A stretch of 64,000 nucleotides of DNA, from the IMG/VR virus record IMGVR_UViG_3300037067_007008, positions 1,634-65,633 of that record. The stretch is one strand, 5' to 3'. Shown piece after piece: positions 26,375-64,000 of the stretch. Under the pieces are notes generated by a model. That model ran no database searches, was not told the DNA's origin, and saw nothing but the letters and a program-made list of their open reading frames with translations. Each line of letters begins with the position of its first letter. The stretch's first letter is position 1. The position numbers were made by a program, and so were the translations under genes. The stretch is from a virus. Taxonomy: Duplodnaviria > Caudoviricetes.

Positions 26375-26448
26375 TGGTGCTGCTGTGGGGACTCGAACCA
26401 CGTTCTCTCGCTTATAGGGCAAGGGCACTACCCATATGCTACAGCAGC
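26375..26448 (-). tRNA. tRNA-Ile(UAU)-like, atypical
   Basis: Acceptor GCTGCTG/CAGCAGC plus A73-CCA. D stem GCAT/GTGC. Anticodon stem CTTGC/GCGAG with loop CC-TAT-AA. T loop TTCGAGT. C33 and two T-stem mismatches. Confidence 0.75.
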
Positions 26449-49386: not shown

Positions 49387-49567
49387 AATCCTAGACTTCT
49401 TAGTCCAATATCTCCCTCACTGGTTCATCCGCCACTATCCACTGAATAAGTGGTACCACGTAGAGTCAGACTGGGAAGATATGCTGAGGAATCATAAGGT
49501 AGGTAAGGATTGGATAGTGGAGTGTGATACCGGTCTTCTACACAGAGGCTCCAGAAAGGTTCAGTAA
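49379..49567 (+). CDS. Hypothetical protein
   Basis: 62 aa, coupled to TerL. Confidence 0.4.
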   Translation: MSKILDFLVQYLPHWFIRHYPLNKWYHVESDWEDMLRNHKVGKDWIVECDTGLLHRGSRKVQ

Positions 49568-50775
49568 TGTATCATGAAAAGGTAGTCCAATGGAGAATAG
49601 AGGCCTTGGAAAAGGCCCTCAACATCCGCATCAGACAACGCTCTGTAGCTGAAGTAGATGACTTCAGACTGAGGCTGGAGCAGCTCCTTGATGATAAGGG
49701 TAATCTGACCAGAAAGTTGATGCAGGAAGAGCTGGACTTCATACGTGATGAGAGATTCCTCTCCAAATGCAGCTTTAGATATTGGGCAGACCGCTACGCC
49801 ACATTCCAGAAGGATGGTTCTGAAGGGGGAGGTGTGGGGCGGGTAAAGTTCTGGCACTCCCAGGAAGCAGCACTCCGCATCATCAGCCAAATAGACCTCA
49901 ACAACTGGGAAGCAAAGATAAGGGGTGAAAGTGTAGATGGTATATGTGTAGTTATGCATAAAGCCAGACAGTTAGGAGCCACTGCACTCTCACGCACCTT
50001 AGGTGTACACAAGCATACTAATTACCAGCATATCCGTGGCATGGCAGCCTCCATTGACGATGACAAGATCATGGAACTCTACGATAGAGATAAGCTATGT
50101 ATAGACAACCTTCCCTTCTACCTTAGACCCAATATAGGCTATGACGTCAAAGCTTCCCATCTATACTTCGATAAACTAGACTCTCGCATCCTATACCAGC
50201 AGTCCCGCCAGCAATCAGGCCTCGGTCAAGGCCGCCAGTTCGACTTTGCCCATCTTACAGAGTGTGCATTCTGGCCTTACCCAAACATGATAGAACTAGA
50301 CTTCTTCCCTGCACTCCCTCTTGGCATCAACACTATGTGTATACTAGAAAGTACAGCCAACGGCATGGGTGGATGGTGGTATGACTTTACAGAAGATGTA
50401 CGTAGAGGTCTACAGCGCAGATGGCACTACATCTTCGCCCCATGGTATATAGAACCCCGTAAGAATCGTGCACACCCTCCACTAGACTGGAACCCCTCCG
50501 ACATGACTATGAAGCACGCCCGGAAGGTATACGAGACTTCCAGAGAGTATACAGGTAAGGATATACTCCTGGAAAGGGAACAACTATACTGGTATGAAAC
50601 AGAAAGAGCAGCGGCTCTTCGTAGAGGTAAACTCAACCTATTCCTCACCAATTACTGTGCTACACCAGAAGAATCCTTTCAGCATACTGGAAATTCTCAG
50701 TTCAGCGTGGAAACTCTTGAAAGAATTAGACTTGGAACGATTCCACCTAATTATTATGAAGTAAATGTAAACTAG
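49567..50775 (+). CDS. terL: Terminase large subunit, ATPase half
   Basis: HKARQLGAT Walker A, FAHLTECAFW Walker B, ILESTANG coupling motif. Confidence 0.88.
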   Translation: MYHEKVVQWRIEALEKALNIRIRQRSVAEVDDFRLRLEQLLDDKGNLTRKLMQEELDFIRDERFLSKCSFRYWADRYATFQKDGSEGGGVGRVKFWHSQEAALRIISQIDLNNWEAKIRGESVDGICVVMHKARQLGATALSRTLGVHKHTNYQHIRGMAASIDDDKIMELYDRDKLCIDNLPFYLRPNIGYDVKASHLYFDKLDSRILYQQSRQQSGLGQGRQFDFAHLTECAFWPYPNMIELDFFPALPLGINTMCILESTANGMGGWWYDFTEDVRRGLQRRWHYIFAPWYIEPRKNRAHPPLDWNPSDMTMKHARKVYETSREYTGKDILLEREQLYWYETERAAALRRGKLNLFLTNYCATPEESFQHTGNSQFSVETLERIRLGTIPPNYYEVNVN

Positions 50776-50822
50776 TTTTTGTGTGTTGAATATGTTAAGC
50801 TCCAATCTATAAAGGAGAAGTT

Positions 50823-51317
50823 ATGAATCCTGAGAAGAGAGAAGCAAAATCACTGATACGATTCAAAGCAAAGTATAAAGTTACAAAATCTGGTTGTTGG
50901 GAATGGACAGCTTGTAAGATCCAAGGTTATGGATCATTCAGTTATAACTGTAAAAAAATTGGTGCGCACGTCTATGCATATACTCACTTTGTTGGCCCTA
51001 TTCCAGAAGGACTAGAACTAGACCACTTATGTAGAAATCCTGGTTGTGTAAACCCAGCTCATTTAGAGCCGGTTACTCCCAAAGTAAATGTAATGAGGAG
51101 TGAAAACTGGGCAGCCTTGAATGCTAAGAAAACCTACTGTAAACGTGGTCATCCCTTAATCCCAGAGAATCTTCAGATAAAGAATGGTCACCGAATTTGC
51201 TTAGAATGCAGGAAGCTTTACAACAAGGATACCTACAAAAGACTATATAGTGCAGAAGCAAATGGTGGCAGGTGTTTGGTTACCATAAAGAGGGGACAAT
51301 TAGATGGCACTACCTGA
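50823..51317 (+). CDS. Free-standing HNH homing endonuclease (His-Cys/HNH_3 type) with C-terminal zinc finger
   Basis: GCWEWT...GYG...AH...DHLCRNPGCVNPAHL and C-x3-H...CLEC. AT-rich. SD AAGGAG. Confidence 0.9.
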   Translation: MNPEKREAKSLIRFKAKYKVTKSGCWEWTACKIQGYGSFSYNCKKIGAHVYAYTHFVGPIPEGLELDHLCRNPGCVNPAHLEPVTPKVNVMRSENWAALNAKKTYCKRGHPLIPENLQIKNGHRICLECRKLYNKDTYKRLYSAEANGGRCLVTIKRGQLDGTT

Positions 51318-52146
51318 AACATACACAATTGGTTATAAAGGGAACTTACAGGCTACTTCACTGGCCCATGATGATCCTGATCCAAGAGGATTAGTGCTAA
51401 TGTTAGAGCCACCTAATCCAAAGGAAACATATGTCCTTGGCATCGACCCCACAGTAGGCATCGTAGGTTGGCATCGCCAACTTCGCACCAGAGATGACCT
51501 CCGCACTGACAATGGAGCCATTGAAATCATCCGTGTAGGGCGCAACGATAAACCTGATGTACAGGTCTGTGAATACGCAGCCCCAATAGACCCTGAAGAA
51601 CTAGCGGATATAGCTAATATCCTTGGCAGATTATATGCAGGCAACAGTGATGATGGCCAATGTCTCACAATTATCGAAGTCTACCCAGGTCCAGGCCTGA
51701 TGACCCAGCGCAAGATGATTAATGCTCTAGGGTATACCAACATGTTTATATGGAAGTACCTGGACTCCATGGCCCTCCGACTCTCTACCTCCTTAGGGTG
51801 GCAATCATCCCCAAAATCAGTCCGAGACCTCTGGATTAGAGGCACCCGACATATCACCCTCGATAAGATTAGGATATTGTCACCTCACCTCGCAGAAGAA
51901 CTAGCCCACTGTGAAGCGGATGAACTCCGCATGACAGCCAAGGCATCCTCAGGAAAGCATGATGATAGGGTTAGGGCCTTCCTCATGGCAATCTGGGCTG
52001 CTCATGACTGGTCTTACCAAATAGAAGAAGTCCGCCAGGAAGTAATAGAAGGAAAGCAACCTGACTGGCAACGCTCCGACATCAGTGCCGAAAAGATGTA
52101 CGAACAATGGCAGGAAAGATTCTCACAACTCTTTGAGGATATATAG
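51304..52146 (+). CDS. terL: Terminase large subunit, RNase H-like nuclease half
   Basis: YVLGIDP, IIEVY, KHDDRVRA acidic triad. Own SD GAGGGG. Confidence 0.85.
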   Translation: MALPETYTIGYKGNLQATSLAHDDPDPRGLVLMLEPPNPKETYVLGIDPTVGIVGWHRQLRTRDDLRTDNGAIEIIRVGRNDKPDVQVCEYAAPIDPEELADIANILGRLYAGNSDDGQCLTIIEVYPGPGLMTQRKMINALGYTNMFIWKYLDSMALRLSTSLGWQSSPKSVRDLWIRGTRHITLDKIRILSPHLAEELAHCEADELRMTAKASSGKHDDRVRAFLMAIWAAHDWSYQIEEVRQEVIEGKQPDWQRSDISAEKMYEQWQERFSQLFEDI

Positions 52147-52679: not shown

Positions 52680-53039
52680 ATGCCCTGTCATGACGTTCAA
52701 TGCTCCAAATGTGGCCTCATCATAGAAAACTACTACGCTTCGCCGTGGCCATCCTCCATAAGCCACGATGATGGGGGTGAGCTAGAAATCTTGTGGCGGG
52801 ACTCCCACAGCCGTCCTGCCGCAGCTCACCCCTTAGATCGCACAGTAATCTGGAAGGACCCCATCACAGGAGAAATCTCCTATCCTCCCACCAACACTGC
52901 AGCCATGCCACTCAGGTATCGTCAAAGAGGCTTCCAGCGCATCGAATTCGAACATGCTCATGAAGTAGAACAGTTCGAACGTGAACAAGGCGTTATCAAC
53001 GAGAAGTTGTGGTTCAATAGCGGCAACGGAGTCAACTAA
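52680..53039 (+). CDS. Zinc-ribbon-like protein preceding the portal
   Basis: MPCHDVQCSKCG, SD GGAGGA. Confidence 0.5.
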   Translation: MPCHDVQCSKCGLIIENYYASPWPSSISHDDGGELEILWRDSHSRPAAAHPLDRTVIWKDPITGEISYPPTNTAAMPLRYRQRGFQRIEFEHAHEVEQFEREQGVINEKLWFNSGNGVN

Positions 53040-54946
53040 TGTCCAACCTTCCCCAGTCTCAGTACGAATCTGAAGTTCTTGGCTACATGAAGGAAGCCCT
53101 GGAAGAAGGAGAGGCATTCCTTCGTATGCAGAAGGGTTATAACCACATCACTGACACCATCAAAGCCATCAGTGGTGAAAATCAAACCCTTCAATCCTCC
53201 ACCCTATCCCAAACTTCCGTAAATTACGTCGCCAAAGTAGCCACTGACCTCACAGCCATGTGCACTGACGTAAAACCCTTCTGGGAATACCGCTCCAAGA
53301 ATGAAAAGTTCAAGCGTCACACAGAAATCCTTGGAGACCTCTCTGAGCACTGGTGGTTGACACGCCTTATTGACTTAAAATTCGCAGACGTAATCCGCTA
53401 CTCCCTGATCGCTGGAACAGGCTACACCCATCACTTCTATAACACCAACACCAACGACCAGGACATCAGCGCCGAAGACCCTCGTGACATCATCCCCATC
53501 CGTCCACCCTCTGTCTCCTTCTCCCTCCAGGAGTGTGCCGGGGTCATCCAGCGTGTCCAACGCACCGTCAATTACGTCCGAGCCAAGTTCCCCCACAAAG
53601 CCTCCCAGATCTTCCCAGACCGGGATGGCTCCATCGTGGCCCAATCCCTCCAAAATAGTCGTGTAGGCCAGCTCTTCGACACCTATGGCTCTCCATTCAG
53701 AGAAAGGCTATTCAATGAAAAACCTGCAAAGGACCTTCCACGCATCCCCTCCGTGGACCTCTACACAGCCTACCTTACCGATGACTCCATCAACCGAGGC
53801 ACCAACCCTGTCTTCATGGGAGATTGGAAGGATGGCAAACCCCTCAACAACTGGTCCTATAAAGTTGAACGAGGTGAACCCCTTTACCCTAGAAAACGGT
53901 GCATTGTATTCACTTCCAACGTCATCCTCTATGACGGTCCTTCCATATACTGGCACGGACTTTTCCCGTTTGCCAAACTTACGCTAGATCCCTGGCCTTG
54001 GTCCTGGCTAGGCAAAGGTGCCCTCTGGGATATCCTCCGACTCCAGCGTGCAATGGATGGAATCCTCCGTATCCTTGACGATCACCTTGAACAGGTAGCC
54101 AGACCTGCTATCCTGGCAGACAAAACCAACATCTCCCAGTCTGACCTTAACAAGATCGACACCAGAAAGGCTGGCCTTAAGGTTAGACAGAATATGGGGA
54201 TGGGTAAAGGCTTGATCATTCAGCCAACCCCAACCCTTCCTAACGATGTAATGTCCATCCTTGAGTTCTACGAAAACAAAATCTATGAACTCCCTGGTGT
54301 CAGAGACATGTCCGCCCTTATGAAACTGAACCAAATGCCTGCCCCAGAGACCATCGAACGTATGCAGGAGTCCATGTCTCCCTCTGTCAGACTTCGCTCC
54401 CGCATTATCGAAGCCTTCATGCGTGAATTCGCCTCCATGGTAGCCTCTAACTTTGCTCAGTTTTACCCTCTCCCACTCCGTATCGCCATCCTCGGAGCAA
54501 AAGGAGCCACTCCAGACGACTTCGACCTCGACCCCGACACCTTCCTCCCAGCTTGGATGGATGATGACTACACCTCTGAAGGTATCGTCAAAATGGAGTC
54601 CCTAACTCGTGGCCCAATGCCTCAATACGACCGTTCCAAGCAGTTCTTCAACAATGTCTCCTATCACATTGCCCCATCCTCTCTGCTGAACGCCTCCGAA
54701 ATCGAGACTCAACTCAAGTACCTCCAGCTTTCTCGTGCAGGCCTGGTGGATCACTGGACTCTCCTTGATAAGTTAAACATCCCCAACGTCGGAGAACCCC
54801 CAGATGGAGCCAAAACCATCACCGAACGCCTCATGGCAGAGCAGCAACTAGGCCTTGGAATGCAAGTCTCCGCAGCTGGCCGCAAATCCAGTGGCCAAGA
54901 ACCTCCTCAACAGAAATCCTCTGGTGCCACCAGTGAGTCAGGATAA
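53039..54946 (+). CDS. Portal protein
   Basis: 635 aa after TerL. N-terminal helices, central beta clip (LYDGPSIYWHGLFPF), QRAMD coiled wing, LEQVARPAILAD. Confidence 0.75.
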   Translation: MSNLPQSQYESEVLGYMKEALEEGEAFLRMQKGYNHITDTIKAISGENQTLQSSTLSQTSVNYVAKVATDLTAMCTDVKPFWEYRSKNEKFKRHTEILGDLSEHWWLTRLIDLKFADVIRYSLIAGTGYTHHFYNTNTNDQDISAEDPRDIIPIRPPSVSFSLQECAGVIQRVQRTVNYVRAKFPHKASQIFPDRDGSIVAQSLQNSRVGQLFDTYGSPFRERLFNEKPAKDLPRIPSVDLYTAYLTDDSINRGTNPVFMGDWKDGKPLNNWSYKVERGEPLYPRKRCIVFTSNVILYDGPSIYWHGLFPFAKLTLDPWPWSWLGKGALWDILRLQRAMDGILRILDDHLEQVARPAILADKTNISQSDLNKIDTRKAGLKVRQNMGMGKGLIIQPTPTLPNDVMSILEFYENKIYELPGVRDMSALMKLNQMPAPETIERMQESMSPSVRLRSRIIEAFMREFASMVASNFAQFYPLPLRIAILGAKGATPDDFDLDPDTFLPAWMDDDYTSEGIVKMESLTRGPMPQYDRSKQFFNNVSYHIAPSSLLNASEIETQLKYLQLSRAGLVDHWTLLDKLNIPNVGEPPDGAKTITERLMAEQQLGLGMQVSAAGRKSSGQEPPQQKSSGATSESG

Positions 54947-59206: not shown

Positions 59207-59641
59207 ATGGAGACAGCATCTCCAACTTCATCGGCACGAAATTTTAATCTTGATGCACCTCCGCCCACTCCTCCTGCCTCCTCAAAGGGGGGAGCCTTCA
59301 TGCCTCCCCCTCCCTCTGGAGGTGGCTTAGGAGATATGGCGAATTCACCTCAGCTGATGACGATGCAAGGTCTAGCCATGGCAAAAGATGCTTTCCAGCT
59401 CATAGCCAATGGCCTCCCAATGCTGTCTCAGCTTCTCTCAAACACAGTAACCGATCTTGAACAACTGGTTGCCCAGGCCACGTCCCAATCCATGGCAGGT
59501 CAGGCACCAGCAATCACTCCTCCTCCTGGAGTGGCTCCAATGATGCCGCCGCCTCCAGGTGCAATGGCTCCTCCGGCTGCCAGCATGTCTGGCATGTCAG
59601 CAGGGGCACCAGGTGGACCTCCCGGACCTATGGGGATGTAG
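59207..59641 (+). CDS. Pro/Gly/Met-rich protein upstream of the scaffold
   Basis: SD AAGGAG, one central helix, low-complexity ends. Confidence 0.5.
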   Translation: METASPTSSARNFNLDAPPPTPPASSKGGAFMPPPPSGGGLGDMANSPQLMTMQGLAMAKDAFQLIANGLPMLSQLLSNTVTDLEQLVAQATSQSMAGQAPAITPPPGVAPMMPPPPGAMAPPAASMSGMSAGAPGGPPGPMGM

Positions 59642-59687
59642 CCTGTTATTCGTGCTGGGCCTTTAGGCAGGCACATAAGGACAAAAG

Positions 59688-60503
59688 ATGGCAAAGAAAT
59701 CTACTGAAGATCTACGAGCATACTGGCAGGAGATAGCAACCAAGAATGGTCTGGACGCAGAAACCATTTCATCTATGGATGCAGCTCTGGGCAACGAAGC
59801 CGTAGCAAAAGCGTTCCGTCAGGCATTTGTAACAGTTTCGGATCATCATAGCACTCTTGATTCCATGAAAACTGAATACGAATCCCAACAGGCGAAAGTC
59901 AACGAATGGTACAACAATCAAGCCCTTCCTGCTTACCAAGCTAACCTGACTGGCATCGAACAGCTCAGGAAGTACGAAGCACTCTATGGCCCGATTGATC
60001 CAGACTCCGTGACCCGCTCTGACGCACGCGAACTCGGCTTTAACAGTAAAGCCGAACTAGACAAGTACCTTGATGACCGTTTCCGCGCTGAAAGAGCTGG
60101 CTACATATCGCTCTCCAAGACCCTCCCTAAGATGTCCGTTGACTACTACAACCGCTTCCATAAAGTTCTGGACCCGGATGAAGTAGAAAAGGTGTCTGTA
60201 GCAAAGGGTCTGCCCCCGGACTTAGCTTATAAGGCTTACATCGAGCCTGAAGTGGAAGCCCAGCGGCAAGCTGATTTTGAAGCCAAAATCAAAGAAGCAG
60301 AGGAACGGGGCGCTCGTAGCGTAGCTTCAAGGCACAATCTGCCAATAGATTCCACCCCCAAGGAGTCCAGCCCGTTCTTTGACCGGGAAGCCACTCCTGC
60401 AAAGCCCATGAGTGAGATCGAAGAAGATCGAGCTTCACGAGCTGCGTTCCTGGATGGCTGGAATACCTATGCGGCAGATGTTGCAAGCAAATTCAAACCC
60501 TAA
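59688..60503 (+). CDS. Capsid scaffolding protein
   Basis: 271 aa, acidic and helical, immediately upstream of the capsid gene. Confidence 0.65.
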   Translation: MAKKSTEDLRAYWQEIATKNGLDAETISSMDAALGNEAVAKAFRQAFVTVSDHHSTLDSMKTEYESQQAKVNEWYNNQALPAYQANLTGIEQLRKYEALYGPIDPDSVTRSDARELGFNSKAELDKYLDDRFRAERAGYISLSKTLPKMSVDYYNRFHKVLDPDEVEKVSVAKGLPPDLAYKAYIEPEVEAQRQADFEAKIKEAEERGARSVASRHNLPIDSTPKESSPFFDREATPAKPMSEIEEDRASRAAFLDGWNTYAADVASKFKP

Positions 60504-60526
60504 CCTCATAAGGTGAGGAGTTAGCA

Positions 60527-60600
60527 ATGGCTGAGTTAGACCAGATTACAGTAGCAACACACCGCTACATTCGAAAGACTCCAAAATTGATTGACATGGT
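60527..60600 (+). CDS. Major capsid protein, exon 1
   Basis: SD GAGGAG. MAELDQITVATHRYIRKTPKLIDM plus GT, which joins exon 2 in frame. Confidence 0.85.
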
Positions 60601-61320
60601 TAACTGAAATGGCTATGTTTAAACCTGACTATATGCTGGAACACCCTAAAGCGAGCACCCCTTATAATGGAACAGTGTGCTTGATTCTCGGAGGAGAAAT
60701 GGACAATCAGCAGGAAATCAGGTTCGCCGCAGCACGAATTGCAATGATGATCGACACTGATGGATGGGCAACCATAAACGTAACCCAACGTAGTAAGGTA
60801 CGTAATGCAAATCTTGTCCCTGCAATAGGTATGGTAAATACTTCCAGACCTTTGATAGAGTGGCTGGATAAAACACTTACTGAGTTGGGAATACCCCATT
60901 ACCTTAAGTGGTATGATCTGAGTGGTTACAAAGGCTCCCGTTGTAAGATGCCTCAAGGCAGAATAACTGTCCAAGGGGTGAAACGGTTGCAGAAATTTTT
61001 GCCACTTATTACTCCATTCCTGATTGCCAAAAGCATTCAGGGAAAGCTTCTACAGGAGTATGTAGACCTTGCCTCAGCACGTCCTGGTAAGGCACCATAC
61101 TCTCAACGGGAGTTGGAGATTGCAAATTATATTCGTGGCTTCAATTCCAATAAAGGTGGAAATTGGCGACCTGTATCCTCAGAGACTGTACGCCAGGCAC
61201 GGGAGATGGTTGATCACCTGAACTCGTTGAAGAGACAGTCCGATCTGAGTGGAGACACCCAGAGTGAGGCAGAAATGACCTCACCTCAGACTATTCACTA
61301 AAGTCTGATGTAACAGAATG
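60601..61320 (+). mobile_element. Group I self-splicing intron (720 nt)
   Basis: P ATGCTGGAA 60633, Q AATCAGCAGG 60705, R TCAGAGACTGTA 61179, S AAGAGACAGTCC 61230. P1 with U60600.G60612, P10 CTGAAA/TTTCAG, terminal G61320. Confidence 0.93.
60699..61301 (+). CDS. Intron-encoded LAGLIDADG homing endonuclease (200 aa)
   Basis: SD GGAGGAG. MDNQQE start, single motif ARIAMMIDTDGWATI. Confidence 0.85.
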   Translation: MDNQQEIRFAAARIAMMIDTDGWATINVTQRSKVRNANLVPAIGMVNTSRPLIEWLDKTLTELGIPHYLKWYDLSGYKGSRCKMPQGRITVQGVKRLQKFLPLITPFLIAKSIQGKLLQEYVDLASARPGKAPYSQRELEIANYIRGFNSNKGGNWRPVSSETVRQAREMVDHLNSLKRQSDLSGDTQSEAEMTSPQTIH

Positions 61321-62323
61321 CTTTCAGAATGATCCGTTACTCGCATATTTGAAATTGAATGTGCGAGAGGACTATGATGGTGGCCGATACATAGGAGAGA
61401 ACTTCTACTATGATGGCCTCATCGGTGGCCCATATCTCCAAGGTAAAGAGTTCGACATCACTGAGCCTCAGATTGAACAGCAGCTCCAGTTCAATGTGAA
61501 GTTCTTCCAGATGAACGTCACTCTCTCCAAGGAAGATATTCAAGTTATCAACAAAGGACAGAATGCAGCCTTTAAGCTGATTGAGTCCCGCATGACCAAT
61601 GCCTATATGACCATCGGAGCACAGATGGCCATCGGCCTGTACCTTAATGGCATCAACGCTGGTTACACTGCCAACTGGAACGGACTTCCTGAAGCATGTA
61701 ACGATGGCTCTGTTGCCTCTTGGGATGGCAATACCTACACCACCTATGGCACCATCACTCGTGGTGGCGCTGTTGGCACGGCCCTCAACTCCATCCCGGT
61801 CAACGTGGGTGGCACCATTGAGTACAACACCCTGGAGGAAACCTACTCCACGGCGTGCTTCGGTACCATCGAACCCAACATCGGCGTCACCACTGCCCTG
61901 GGTTACTCCTATATCAAGGAGAAATTCCAGACTCAGCAACGCTTTAACGAAGTTCAGGACCCTAAAATCGGTTTCAACGGGCTCAAGTTCAACATGGCGA
62001 CCCTGATGAAATCCCGATATGCTCCTGGCTCCTACATCAGTGGTGCTGGTACTGGCGACCGAATCGCCAATGGCTTCATCAAACAGATGTCCAACGGAGC
62101 ACTCTTGGTTTACCCAACCGTCGCCTCCGAGACTCTATGGTGGCTCAATGCTCGTAAGCCCTACGCCAACCTGTACCTCAGTAACGATCCTGAGTACAGT
62201 CTGGGCTTCACCGGATTCAAGCCGGGTCAAGGCAACACCAAGGTTGCGGGACAGGTTCTGGCTGCTGGCGCAGTCACTTTCGCCCCCCGTTATCATAAAC
62301 AGCTGTATGGGATCACTGGATAA
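61321..62323 (+). CDS. Major capsid protein, exon 2 (spliced product 358 aa)
   Basis: C-TTT-CAG-AAT restores ...IDMVFQNDPLLAYLK... Capsid-like sequence, strongly C-ending codons. Confidence 0.85.
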
Positions 62324-62340
62324 CCAGAAAGGAGATACAT

Positions 62341-62927
62341 ATGCCTAACACAAATCGTGACCAGTTACTGTATATCCAGACTGGTAATCCTGATACCTGG
62401 AGTTTCGCTCCTGAAACTACCACCTCCACTCCCACCTCCGTTGCTCGACGGATTCAGGGTGAGCTTGGTAAAGCGTATGACTGGAATGACCGAGCCTATC
62501 AGCGGGTCAAACTGGACTCTGGTGCCACTGCCTCCAACACTGTTGGTGCAGTCGCCGCGAACCAGCTGGCTTTCTGGAAGGATAAGTCCCAGTACCTTGT
62601 CACCAATGACAAGCGCTTTGCCCTTCAGGGTGCTGTTGCTAACAGCTTTGCCAACAACGTAGCGGGAATCTTCCGCTCTGCTGTCCCCGCCGGGTACTAC
62701 TGTGACATCCTCATCCGTGGCCGCAACATCGCTGTTCCGTAGCCACTGCTGATGAAGGAAACGTCACTGGTGGTGTCTCCGTCATCGCTGATGTCACCGC
62801 AGACACTGCTTCCGTTGACGGAGTTGCAGTTGGTACTGCTGTTACTTACCAGAAGTTGGGAATTTGCCGAACCGCCTCCACGTCCAACGTGGCCTATGCG
62901 GACATCGACATCCCCAATATTCCTTAA
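62341..62927 (+). CDS. Capsid decoration/cement-like protein, frameshifted at ~62739
   Basis: 133 aa ORF stops at TAG 62740. The -1 frame continues VATADEGNVTGG...IDIPNIP for 62 aa with no start of its own, ending just before the next SD. Confidence 0.6.
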
Positions 62928-62938
62928 GGAGTCTAATC

Positions 62939-63169
62939 ATGGCTATCACAGTCTCGCGTAAGCGGACCTTAGTGTATGGCAACCGTAAGATTATGAACTA
63001 TACTCTTACTGTTGGGGTCACAGGTGATACGCTTGTTACGGGCTTGGCAAAAGTTGAGTTTGTGAGTAGCAATACTCCAGCTGAACTTACCAAGATCACG
63101 GCATCAGGTGGGACCTTAACCTTTACAGGCACTGCTGCTGATGCACTGGTGCATGTCGAAGGTTACTAA
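62939..63169 (+). CDS. Small virion protein
   Basis: MAITVSRKRTLVYGNRK..., 76 aa, SD AAGGAG. Confidence 0.55.
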   Translation: MAITVSRKRTLVYGNRKIMNYTLTVGVTGDTLVTGLAKVEFVSSNTPAELTKITASGGTLTFTGTAADALVHVEGY

Positions 63170-63194
63170 TCGTTAATAGAAGGAGCACTTTTCT

Positions 63195-64000
63195 ATGTTA
63201 GATACTTACCTGAGTATAGCTGGTAAAGTGCTCCTTCGCTGCCCCATGGCTGGGCCTCTCCTAGCTCGTGACTGGGTAGCAAATGCCTTTCGTCGTATCG
63301 CAGAACGCCGCGCCTGGTCCTGGCTTATTAAGCAGGGCCAGTTCATCATGTATCCTCTCTACAATGGTGGCACCGTCACCACCACTCAAGGCAGCACCAC
63401 AGTCACAGGTATAGGTACAGCCTTCACAGCTGCCATGGCAGGTCGTCAGTTCCGCCTCACCACCACAACTCCCATCTACACCGTCACAGCTGTAGATATT
63501 GTCCTGCAAACCCTTACCTTAGACCTTCCCTGGGGTCCAGCCTCCTACATAGGTCATGCCTATGAAATCTATAGTGCCTATGTCTCCCCACCGACAGACT
63601 TCAACTACTTCCTGACAGTCTGGGACCCTAACTTCAACTGGCAGCTTCACCTAAACATCACCCAGCGTGAAGTCAATACATGGGATGCACAACGCTCTAA
63701 TCGTGGCCAAGCTTACTTAGTCTCTCCTAGGGACTACTACACTCCATCAGGTTCCACCATACCTCTACCCCGCTTCGAGGTCTGGCCTCATGTAACCTCT
63801 GCCTATGTCCTGCCCTTCCTCTATCTCTCCAGAGCCACTGACCTCCAGGACTCTGGAGCACTTCTCCCTAGATATATCCGAGGAGATGTCCTATTGGAAC
63901 TGGCCTTGGCAGAGGCAGCCCGATGGCCTGGGCCGGGACTCTCAGTAAACGAGAAAGGCTACACCCGCCCCTCCAACCCCTACTTCCACCCCCAACTGGC
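63195..64000 (+). CDS. Head-tail adaptor-like protein (3'-truncated; absent from the ORF track)
   Basis: Open from ATG 63195 to the window end: MLDTYLSIAGKVLLRCP...YVSPPTDF...PRFEVWPH...LLELALAEAARWPG. Confidence 0.65.
   Translation, partial: MLDTYLSIAGKVLLRCPMAGPLLARDWVANAFRRIAERRAWSWLIKQGQFIMYPLYNGGTVTTTQGSTTVTGIGTAFTAAMAGRQFRLTTTTPIYTVTAVDIVLQTLTLDLPWGPASYIGHAYEIYSAYVSPPTDFNYFLTVWDPNFNWQLHLNITQREVNTWDAQRSNRGQAYLVSPRDYYTPSGSTIPLPRFEVWPHVTSAYVLPFLYLSRATDLQDSGALLPRYIRGDVLLELALAEAARWPGPGLSVNEKGYTRPSNPYFHPQL

Follow-up and report, generated by a model that had tools for sequence, protein, structure and literature searches.

Introns in phage capsid genes, and homing endonuclease genes that run into the ribozyme, have both been described before. 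In mycobacteriophage LittleE, an intron of 819 bp lies in the capsid gene and contains an I-CreI-related gene in antisense orientation; reverse transcription PCR, together with N-terminal sequencing across the junction, proved that the intron is spliced (Pope et al. 2013, PMC3706429). PMC3706429 also cites a capsid intron of lactococcal phage Tuc2009. Group I introns are also present in the major capsid protein (MCP) genes of the crAss-like Delta and Zeta phages (Yutin et al. 2021, PMC7886860). The extension of an open reading frame (ORF) from a peripheral loop into the core helices of a group I intron has been termed core creep, with overlap reported at both the 5′ and 3′ ends; T4 td/I-TevI is one example, and in the large-subunit (LSU) intron of Synechococcus lividus, the LAGLIDADG ORF shares 81 nt with P6/P7/P3/P8/P9.0/P9 (Edgell, Chalamcharla and Belfort 2011, PMC3073962). 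Here we analyze a 64,000-nt stretch of DNA (the window), corresponding to bases 1634-65633 of a 65,633-bp IMG/VR virus record (IMGVR_UViG_3300037067_007008) that is rated complete by CheckV and comes from an uncultured tailed phage. Its capsid gene is very probably split in codon 25 by a 720-nt mobile group I intron, which would splice itself and carries an I-CreI-type homing endonuclease gene written through its core.

The window intron resembles that of LittleE in several respects. Both are about 0.8 kb long and interrupt a tailed phage's major capsid gene, both have U ahead of the cut and G as the last base, and both are associated with an I-CreI-related LAGLIDADG protein. Unlike in the window, the LittleE endonuclease gene is antisense, which rules out a reading frame through the ribozyme core. 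The phage collection searched gave no sequence similarity to the window. The closest solved relatives of the window endonuclease are I-CreI, encoded by the Chlamydomonas chloroplast 23S rRNA intron Cr.LSU, and also I-MsoI and I-CvuI. Cr.LSU differs from the window intron in its host gene, which is an organelle rRNA gene and not a phage protein gene, and the protein identity is about 20-24%. The crAss-like phages share with the window group I introns with endonuclease domains, LAGLIDADG included, in core genes including the MCP gene; they belong to a different phage order (gut, Bacteroidota hosts), and their introns were found via protein domains, with no RNA structure analysis. Compared with S. 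lividus, the overlap in the window is larger (about 137 nt at the 3′ side plus 30 nt at the 5′ side), and both P6a strands are coding. The initial annotation of this DNA pointed to the ORF-through-core layout and the capsid location; neither is unusual (PMC3073962, PMC3706429, PMC7886860). The literature thus already covers introns in capsid genes, I-CreI-like endonucleases of phages and ORF/core overlap, and the locus opens no new category. What is new is a family of introns in one phage clade, with two insertion sites, two endonuclease lineages and ORF-less forms.

Comparison with uninterrupted homologues shows that the two exons jointly encode the full-length capsid protein. The coding sequence starts at ATG 60527, the last base of exon 1 is T60600, and the insert lies between the second and third base of codon 25, a Val codon GT/C (the slash marks the splice site). 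The third base of this split codon is variable, because relatives read GT/A, GT/T and CT/C. In agreement with the initial annotation, deleting 60601-61320 (720 nt) in silico gives a seamless protein of 358 amino acids (aa), ...KLIDMV/FQNDPLL..., and more than 100 uninterrupted homologues of 356-358 aa read straight through this join. The junction of the spliced protein is identical letter for letter to that of the uninterrupted homologues P0002-P0060. The N-termini of the homologues, MAELDQITVATHR[YF]IRKTPKLIDMVFQNDPLLAYLK, correspond to window exon 1 followed by exon 2 from 61321, and the intronless alleles contain ...GACATGGT-N-TTCCAG... as unbroken DNA. Among seven intron-bearing loci, differences within exon 1 fall mainly on third codon positions (299, against 123 and 90 at the other two), so the 25 codons upstream of the insert are still selected as protein. 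An intein was considered and rejected, since the exon frame meets a stop at TGA 60605-60607 and the internal ORF is in a different frame. The expectation that ORF-only annotation would mis-start the capsid protein is borne out by database entry P0001, a 320-aa capsid protein beginning MREDYDGG.

The insert aligns with the Rfam group I intron model (RF00028) over the whole model, from 60583 to 61262, with 27.4 bits. The expectation value (E) is 9.5e-5 on a 1-kb stretch and 0.0061 on the whole 64-kb window. The covariance search that had been suggested as a check therefore yields a full-length alignment, but one below the gathering threshold of 50 bits, and the intron appears only in E-value mode; at the gathering threshold, Rfam reports tRNA only and nothing at the intron. 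Among the relatives, L001 scores 30.5 bits and the ORF-less 217-nt intron of L023 scores 41.6 bits (E 1.6e-7). The Rfam alignment of L023 shows P1, P3, P4, P5, P6, P6a, P7, P3′, P8, P7′ and P9, with no P2. The conserved P (60633-60639), Q (60705-60711), R (61179-61191) and S (61230-61240) elements follow one another in order in the window. These elements, P1, P7 (GACTGT with ACAGTC) and the terminal G were all found where the initial annotation had placed them.

Further evidence for the ribozyme comes from covariation among the related capsid introns. Helices were counted by name in the 3′ halves of ten introns (alignment A1) and the 5′ halves of nine (A2); RNAalifold run on an automatic MAFFT alignment of the trimmed cores gave a poor structure, and the named-helix counts were used instead. 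P8 and P9.2 stand outside the formal counts, as bulges and indels shift their register between relatives. In P7, P9 and P9.1 together, 96.3% of the cells are paired and 13 of the 19 pairs have changed on both sides. None of 500 shuffles reaches any of the measures, and sliding the partner strand by 1-3 columns leaves 23-40% paired. In P1, P4, P5 and P5a, 97.1% of the cells are paired and two-sided changes affect 13 of 22 pairs; the controls behave as for the first set. In total, 26 compensatory pairs are found across 9-10 related capsid introns. P4 is 93% paired with two pairs changed on both sides, and it is also present in the Rfam alignment of L023. P3 has 6-7 bp in nine of nine introns, with compensatory changes at several positions, and P6a has 6-10 bp in all eight introns tabulated, with differing sequences and compensatory changes. 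With the RF00028 E-values and both kinds of control, the sequence features of the intron are beyond chance. The comparison thus supports the earlier claim that a group I intron splits the capsid gene, and it shows that the intron RNA keeps a group I fold composed of P1, P3-P9, P9.1 and P9.2, with no P2 (Table 1).

P1 is the most telling helix, and the comparison shows that the guide sequence tracks the exon codons. The guide GCUAUGU pairs with ACAUGGU in the window, whereas GCGUUGU pairs with ACAACGU and GGGUCGU with ACGACCU in relatives. Four P1 pairs show compensatory changes, and the U.G pair at the cut is invariant in nine of nine introns. For P10, the proposed pairing of CUGAAA with UUUCAG can form in the window and is plausible, but its comparative support is weak because relatives retain only 3-4 bp.

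Table 1. Positions of the capsid exons, the intron helices and the endonuclease gene in the window
Feature	Coordinates	Strand	Description
Capsid exon 1	60527..60600	+	24 codons + 2 nt, MAELDQITVATHRYIRKTPKLIDM-V; matches N-termini of uninterrupted homologues
P1 5′ strand, exon ACAUGGU	60594..60600	+	Cut after U60600; 7 pairs, 100% paired in 9 sequences
Group I intron	60601..61320	+	720 nt, without P2 and without P7.1/7.2; RF00028 full length
Candidate P10 guide CUGAAA	60604..60609	+	Partner exon 2 UUUCAG 61322-61327; read from sequence
Internal guide sequence, P1 3′ strand GCUAUGU	60612..60618	+	U60600.G60612 at cut site
P3 5′ strand CCUGAC	60624..60629	+	Partner 61192-61197; one A.C mismatch
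P4 5′ strand (P element)	60635..60639	+	Partner 60707-60711 (Q element)
P5 5′ strand	60644..60646	+	Partner 60701-60703, containing G of endonuclease AUG; 96% paired
P5a hairpin CGAGCAC ... GUGCUUG	60652..60683	+	6/7 pairs changed on both sides
Shine-Dalgarno GGAGGAG	60690..60696	+	2 nt before ATG 60699; between P5a and P5 3′ strands
I-CreI-like single-motif LAGLIDADG endonuclease ORF (predicted)	60699..61301	+	200 aa; frame also open from ATG 60609
P6 (AGGA) and P6a (AGGU-U-CGCC) 5′ strands	60712..60728	+	Partners 61176-61179, 61165-61172; code endonuclease residues 5-10
P6a′, P6′, J6/7, P7 5′ strand (R element, GACUGU 61184-61189), P3′ (61192-61197)	61165..61197	+	Code W156-RPVSSETVRQ
P8 (ACGGG with CUCGU)	61199..61227	+	Read from sequence and relatives; register varies between relatives
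P7 3′ strand (S element) ACAGUC	61235..61240	+	Fifth pair G-C, U-A or A-U across introns
P9, GAGA tetraloop	61245..61262	+	97% paired, 6/7 pairs changed on both sides
P9.1 hairpin	61264..61284	+	100% paired, 6/6 pairs changed on both sides
P9.2 hairpin CAGACU with AGUCUG	61287..61307	+	Endonuclease stop TAA 61299-61301 in loop; read from sequence
Terminal G (omega G)	61320	+	Final G in 9/9 site-25 introns
Capsid exon 2	61321..62323	+	Finishes Val codon, then FQNDPLL... to stop
Intronless (exon-joined) capsid junction			...ATTGACATGGTCTTTCAGAATGA...
Capsid peptide expected if spliced			LIDMVFQNDPLLAYLK

The ORF inside the intron matches LAGLIDADG_3 (PF14528) in Pfam with 19.9 bits (E 9e-4). Searching PDB sequences with phmmer and with a profile of eight homologues returns only I-CreI, I-MsoI, I-CvuI and their engineered or chimeric derivatives, with E down to 1e-9. 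The AlphaFold model has a mean predicted local distance difference test score (pLDDT) of 78.8 and the order alpha-beta-beta-alpha-beta-beta-alpha (H2-21, E22-29, E38-47, H50-62, E68-72, E86-92 and H94-107). It is confident over residues 1-150, and residues 161-181 form a helix at modest confidence. The top Foldseek matches of this model are I-CreI, I-CvuI and I-MsoI with probability 1.0, and the target-normalised template modelling (TM) scores for I-CreI and I-CvuI are 0.63-0.72. These results agree with the initial identification of a LAGLIDADG ORF, which, as also noted initially, reads through Q, R, S and P9.

The protein contains one LAGLIDADG motif, AARIAMMIDTDG, which aligns with VDGDG of I-CreI. 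D19, T20 and G22 are invariant, and position 21 is acidic in all eight homologues (Asp in seven, Glu in one). Besides the acidic residue of the motif, 39 other columns are invariant among these eight homologues at 49-68% identity. Seven database homologues are 49-68% identical, and every one of them with DNA or a gene map lies in a capsid-gene context. Single-motif enzymes of the I-CreI type act as homodimers and cleave the intronless allele, leaving 4-nt 3′ overhangs. The single motif with its acidic position 21 therefore points to an I-CreI-type enzyme, which would be expected to act as a homodimer.

The endonuclease gene and the ribozyme share about 167 nt, 30 of them at the 5′ side (60699-60728, from P5′ to P6a) and 137 at the 3′ side (61165-61301, from P6a′ to P9.2). 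The overlap noted initially thus exists, but is larger than the estimate of about 130 nt. At the 5′ side, the P5 3′ strand begins with the G of the endonuclease AUG, and codons 3-10 form Q/P4′, P6 and the P6a 5′ strand, while the bulk of the protein is encoded in the P6a loop. At the 3′ side, the region from W156 (61164) to the stop at 61299-61301 comprises P6a′, P6′, J6/7, P7, P3′, P8, P7′, P9, P9.1 and half of P9.2, so that the last 45 codons double as the P6a′-to-P9.2 part of the ribozyme, and 19 nt separate the stop from the 3′ splice site. P6a is coding on both strands (residues 8-10 and 156-158), and therefore the N- and C-terminal parts of the enzyme may have to co-evolve via RNA pairing.

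Particularly, translation of the R element UCAGAGACUGUACG gives the peptide SSETVR, for which the aligned residues of I-CreI are TSETVR. The C-terminus of I-CreI, ...TSETVRAVLDSL, aligns with SSETVRQAREMVDHL of the window, and the I-CreI peptide would likewise be encoded by its intron core. Since I-CreI shares SETVR at the aligned place, the overlap layout looks ancestral to the enzyme/intron lineage and not special to the window phage. A metagenome scan with the R-element variant CCTCAGAGACTNTACG shows that this variant is common in environmental DNA, the matches listed covering at least 120 loci (L033-L152). Among the matches listed there are at least 130 R occurrences; a matching S element follows within 200 nt in 88, and an ORF of at least 100 codons in the S-E-T frame reads through 21. 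None of the matches listed contains the window capsid gene, and three show weak endonuclease similarity. In IMG/VR, the R-element pattern was found in a single contig only.

The endonuclease likely starts at ATG 60699 in the window, which follows a strong Shine-Dalgarno sequence by 2 nt; L154 has a similar one (GAGGAGA), and four of seven relatives have Met at the equivalent M-[DG]-N-Q-Q-E position. A public gene call of 230 aa (P0121) begins further upstream at ATG 60609, inside the guide sequence. We consider this an unlikely main product: the segment 60609-60698 evolves as RNA, with six of the seven P5a pairs changed on both sides, weak protein conservation and frame shifts between relatives, and the endonuclease frame of L154 is interrupted by a TAA 17 codons before its ATG. 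The start at 60699, proposed earlier, is probable for the window but does not hold family-wide. In the closest relative (L001:2294-2965, 70% identical), GAG replaces the ATG, and in-frame ATGs exist only in the guide sequence and P4; judging from this sequence, the L001 endonuclease must start upstream, or the gene is silent.

Based on these features, the intron would act in two steps. An external guanosine would attack after U60600, and the freed exon would next attack after G61320, and the 358-aa capsid protein would be made from the spliced mRNA only. In co-infecting relatives, the endonuclease homodimer would cut capsid alleles that lack the intron, near the GACATGGT/CTTTCAG junction, and repair of the double-strand break would copy the intron in (homing). 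A given RNA is probably either translated into endonuclease or spliced, but not both, because ribosomes would unfold the core and the folded core would occlude the start codon. This situation is comparable with T4 td/I-TevI, in which the ribosome-binding site is sequestered in a hairpin (PMC3073962), and by this analogy the competition between translation and splicing proposed in the initial annotation is likely.

Several points weigh against an active, self-splicing and mobile intron. Its Rfam score is below the cut-off (27.4 versus 50), which is a curation limit and not a structural feature, and the score is reduced by the 436 nt of ORF body within the P6a loop. Single mismatches occur in the window copy in P3 (A.C), P5 (C.A, at 60644/60703) and P9 (A.C), and P10 has 6 bp in the window and just 3-4 bp in relatives. 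The LAGLIDADG_3 score is also under the Pfam cut-off (19.9 versus 22.5), for which the PDB profile search and the fold match compensate. In the model, residues 151-180 have pLDDT 55-63, and the last 18 residues (183-200) are disordered. The start codon is uncertain, with the frame open from 60609 and no ATG in L001 at the position equivalent to 60699. Finally, self-splicing of the late capsid transcript is predicted from its sequence, and the activity of the endonuclease and its capsid target are predictions from sequence and fold model.

Part of this evidence would also fit a decaying element, in which the ribozyme still splices, as the capsid is essential, but the endonuclease is inactive or untranslated and the intron is immobile in the window phage. 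The ORF-less derivatives L022 and L023 at the same site, the absence of a canonical ATG in L001, the sub-threshold Pfam score and the low model confidence of the C-terminal tail are in line with such decay. We nevertheless regard it as unlikely, given an intact ORF of 200 codons behind a strong Shine-Dalgarno sequence, the invariance of the acidic motif residue and 39 more columns across eight homologues at 49-68% identity, and the confident fold over residues 1-150. The same ORF-less forms bear on whether the intron is real but not self-sufficient, requiring its own endonuclease as a maturase, or a host factor. The mismatches in P3, P5 and P9 and the lack of P2 could suggest such a need, and a maturase role is established for some LAGLIDADG proteins of organellar introns (discussed in PMC3073962). 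However, the same core is retained in L022 and L023 in the absence of any protein, an argument for a self-sufficient core. The peripheral P9, P9.1 and P9.2 and the GNRA loop are present as well, and dependence on a protein therefore seems improbable.

Splicing might also be absent altogether. A free-standing endonuclease gene would then split the capsid gene, and translation would yield either a capsid protein begun internally near 61349 or two polypeptides. A TTG at 61349 does open a 324-aa frame, and gene callers yield truncated proteins of this kind (P0001, P0006 and P0007). Against it, 61349 has no preceding Shine-Dalgarno sequence, the insert sits inside a codon with the ends U/...G/ and has a complete group I fold with covariation support, the guide sequence changes along with the exon codons, and exon 1 is still under coding selection. 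We give this arrangement hardly any credence, and a spliced, mobile group I intron remains by far our preferred reading.

Relatives of the capsid gene reveal that the intron belongs to a family. Among 22 distinct IMG/VR capsid relatives, 14 have no intron, five have one after codon 25 and three have one after codon 53. A search of IMG/VR for related loci with the endonuclease gave no confirmed relative. Introns at the same codon as in the window are found in L001, L022, L023, L024, L030, L032, L153 and L154. Their lengths are 709 nt (L001/L002/L007/L029), 755 nt (L030/L031), 737 nt (L032), 707 nt (L153 and L154) and 651 nt (L024), and the ORF-less introns are 217 nt (L023) and 276 nt (L022). 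The codon-25 site is thus occupied by ORF-less forms (L022, L023), by introns with a window-type endonuclease (six sequenced loci) and by an intron with a different LAGLIDADG protein (L024), for which no relation to the window endonuclease is detectable outside the RNA-encoded tail.

The codon-53 intron (L011 at L011:1815-2500, L012 and L026) is 686 nt long and lies between GAGAACTT and CTACTATGAC. It has the same start as the window intron, UAACUAAAUGG, and aligns with it through P7, P9 and P9.1, while its guide GAGUUC pairs with its own exon GAACUU. Its LAGLIDADG protein is akin to that of L024 (30% identity, E 2e-11), and not to that of the window. Its endonuclease tail ends AEMTVPQTIQ, and the tail in the window ends AEMTSPQTIH. 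ORF-less forms, two endonuclease lineages and two sites are the pattern expected of repeated ORF invasion together with intron movement. It is quite possible, although we propose it only tentatively, that one intron lineage occupies two positions in the capsid gene (after codons 25 and 53) with the guide sequence alone changed, and that it exists in three states: ORF-less, with an I-CreI-like ORF beginning in P5, and with a second LAGLIDADG ORF beginning in the P6a loop.

Several relatives show further irregularities. The ORF-less 276-nt intron of L022 (L022:2599-2826) is open for 75 codons, and its 3′ part reads AAATTKP...CDSLNCTD..AEV.E, which is the frame and peptide of the L024 endonuclease tail; this reflects either loss of the ORF by deletion from an ancestor that carried it or a core sequence naturally open in that frame. 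At the P0127 locus, the capsid region downstream of the endonuclease homologue is called as ORFs of 63 aa and 217 aa, not as one gene of about 330 aa, which hints at a further interruption or a frameshift. In L026:2501-3396, the capsid match changes frame at about residue 250 (two high-scoring segment pairs, in frames 2 and 1), and this is a frameshift or an assembly error.

A portal gene (53039-54946, PHROG 156) lies upstream of the capsid locus, a 271-aa gene (59688-60503) occupies the usual scaffold-gene position just ahead of the capsid gene, and tail-like genes are located downstream. Capsid exon 2 matches PHROG 9953, major head protein, with E 1.5e-12, and a search with exon 2 only returned 622 homologues, mostly of 356-358 aa. 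Isolates with a related capsid are limited to two Tunturiibacter (Acidobacteriota) phages at 27% identity, as found by tblastn of exon 2 against 50,697 phage records; blastn of 59600-63200 against the same records gave no match. When the whole window was scanned with Rfam in E-value mode, no second group I match came up at E ≤ 0.1. Elsewhere in the window there is one tRNA gene on the minus strand (26378-26448, RF00005, 43 bits), and two ORFs of 402 aa and 280 aa within 49567-52146 have no match in PHROGs.

The comparative support for the window intron, drawn from the alignments, is unusually clean. Gene callers shorten the capsid proteins of the window and of many relatives to about 320-328 aa and label the endonuclease hypothetical, and recognition of the intron restores the 358-aa protein. 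The locus would be a further well-supported example of a phage whose most abundant late transcript appears to depend on ribozyme splicing. Moreover, the family comprises at least 10 capsid introns, some of which have an endonuclease gene while others have none, and is usable for studying how an ORF invades an intron and then extends into its core. If one intron lineage does occupy both sites, the family would provide a natural series for endonuclease invasion, core creep and site switching.

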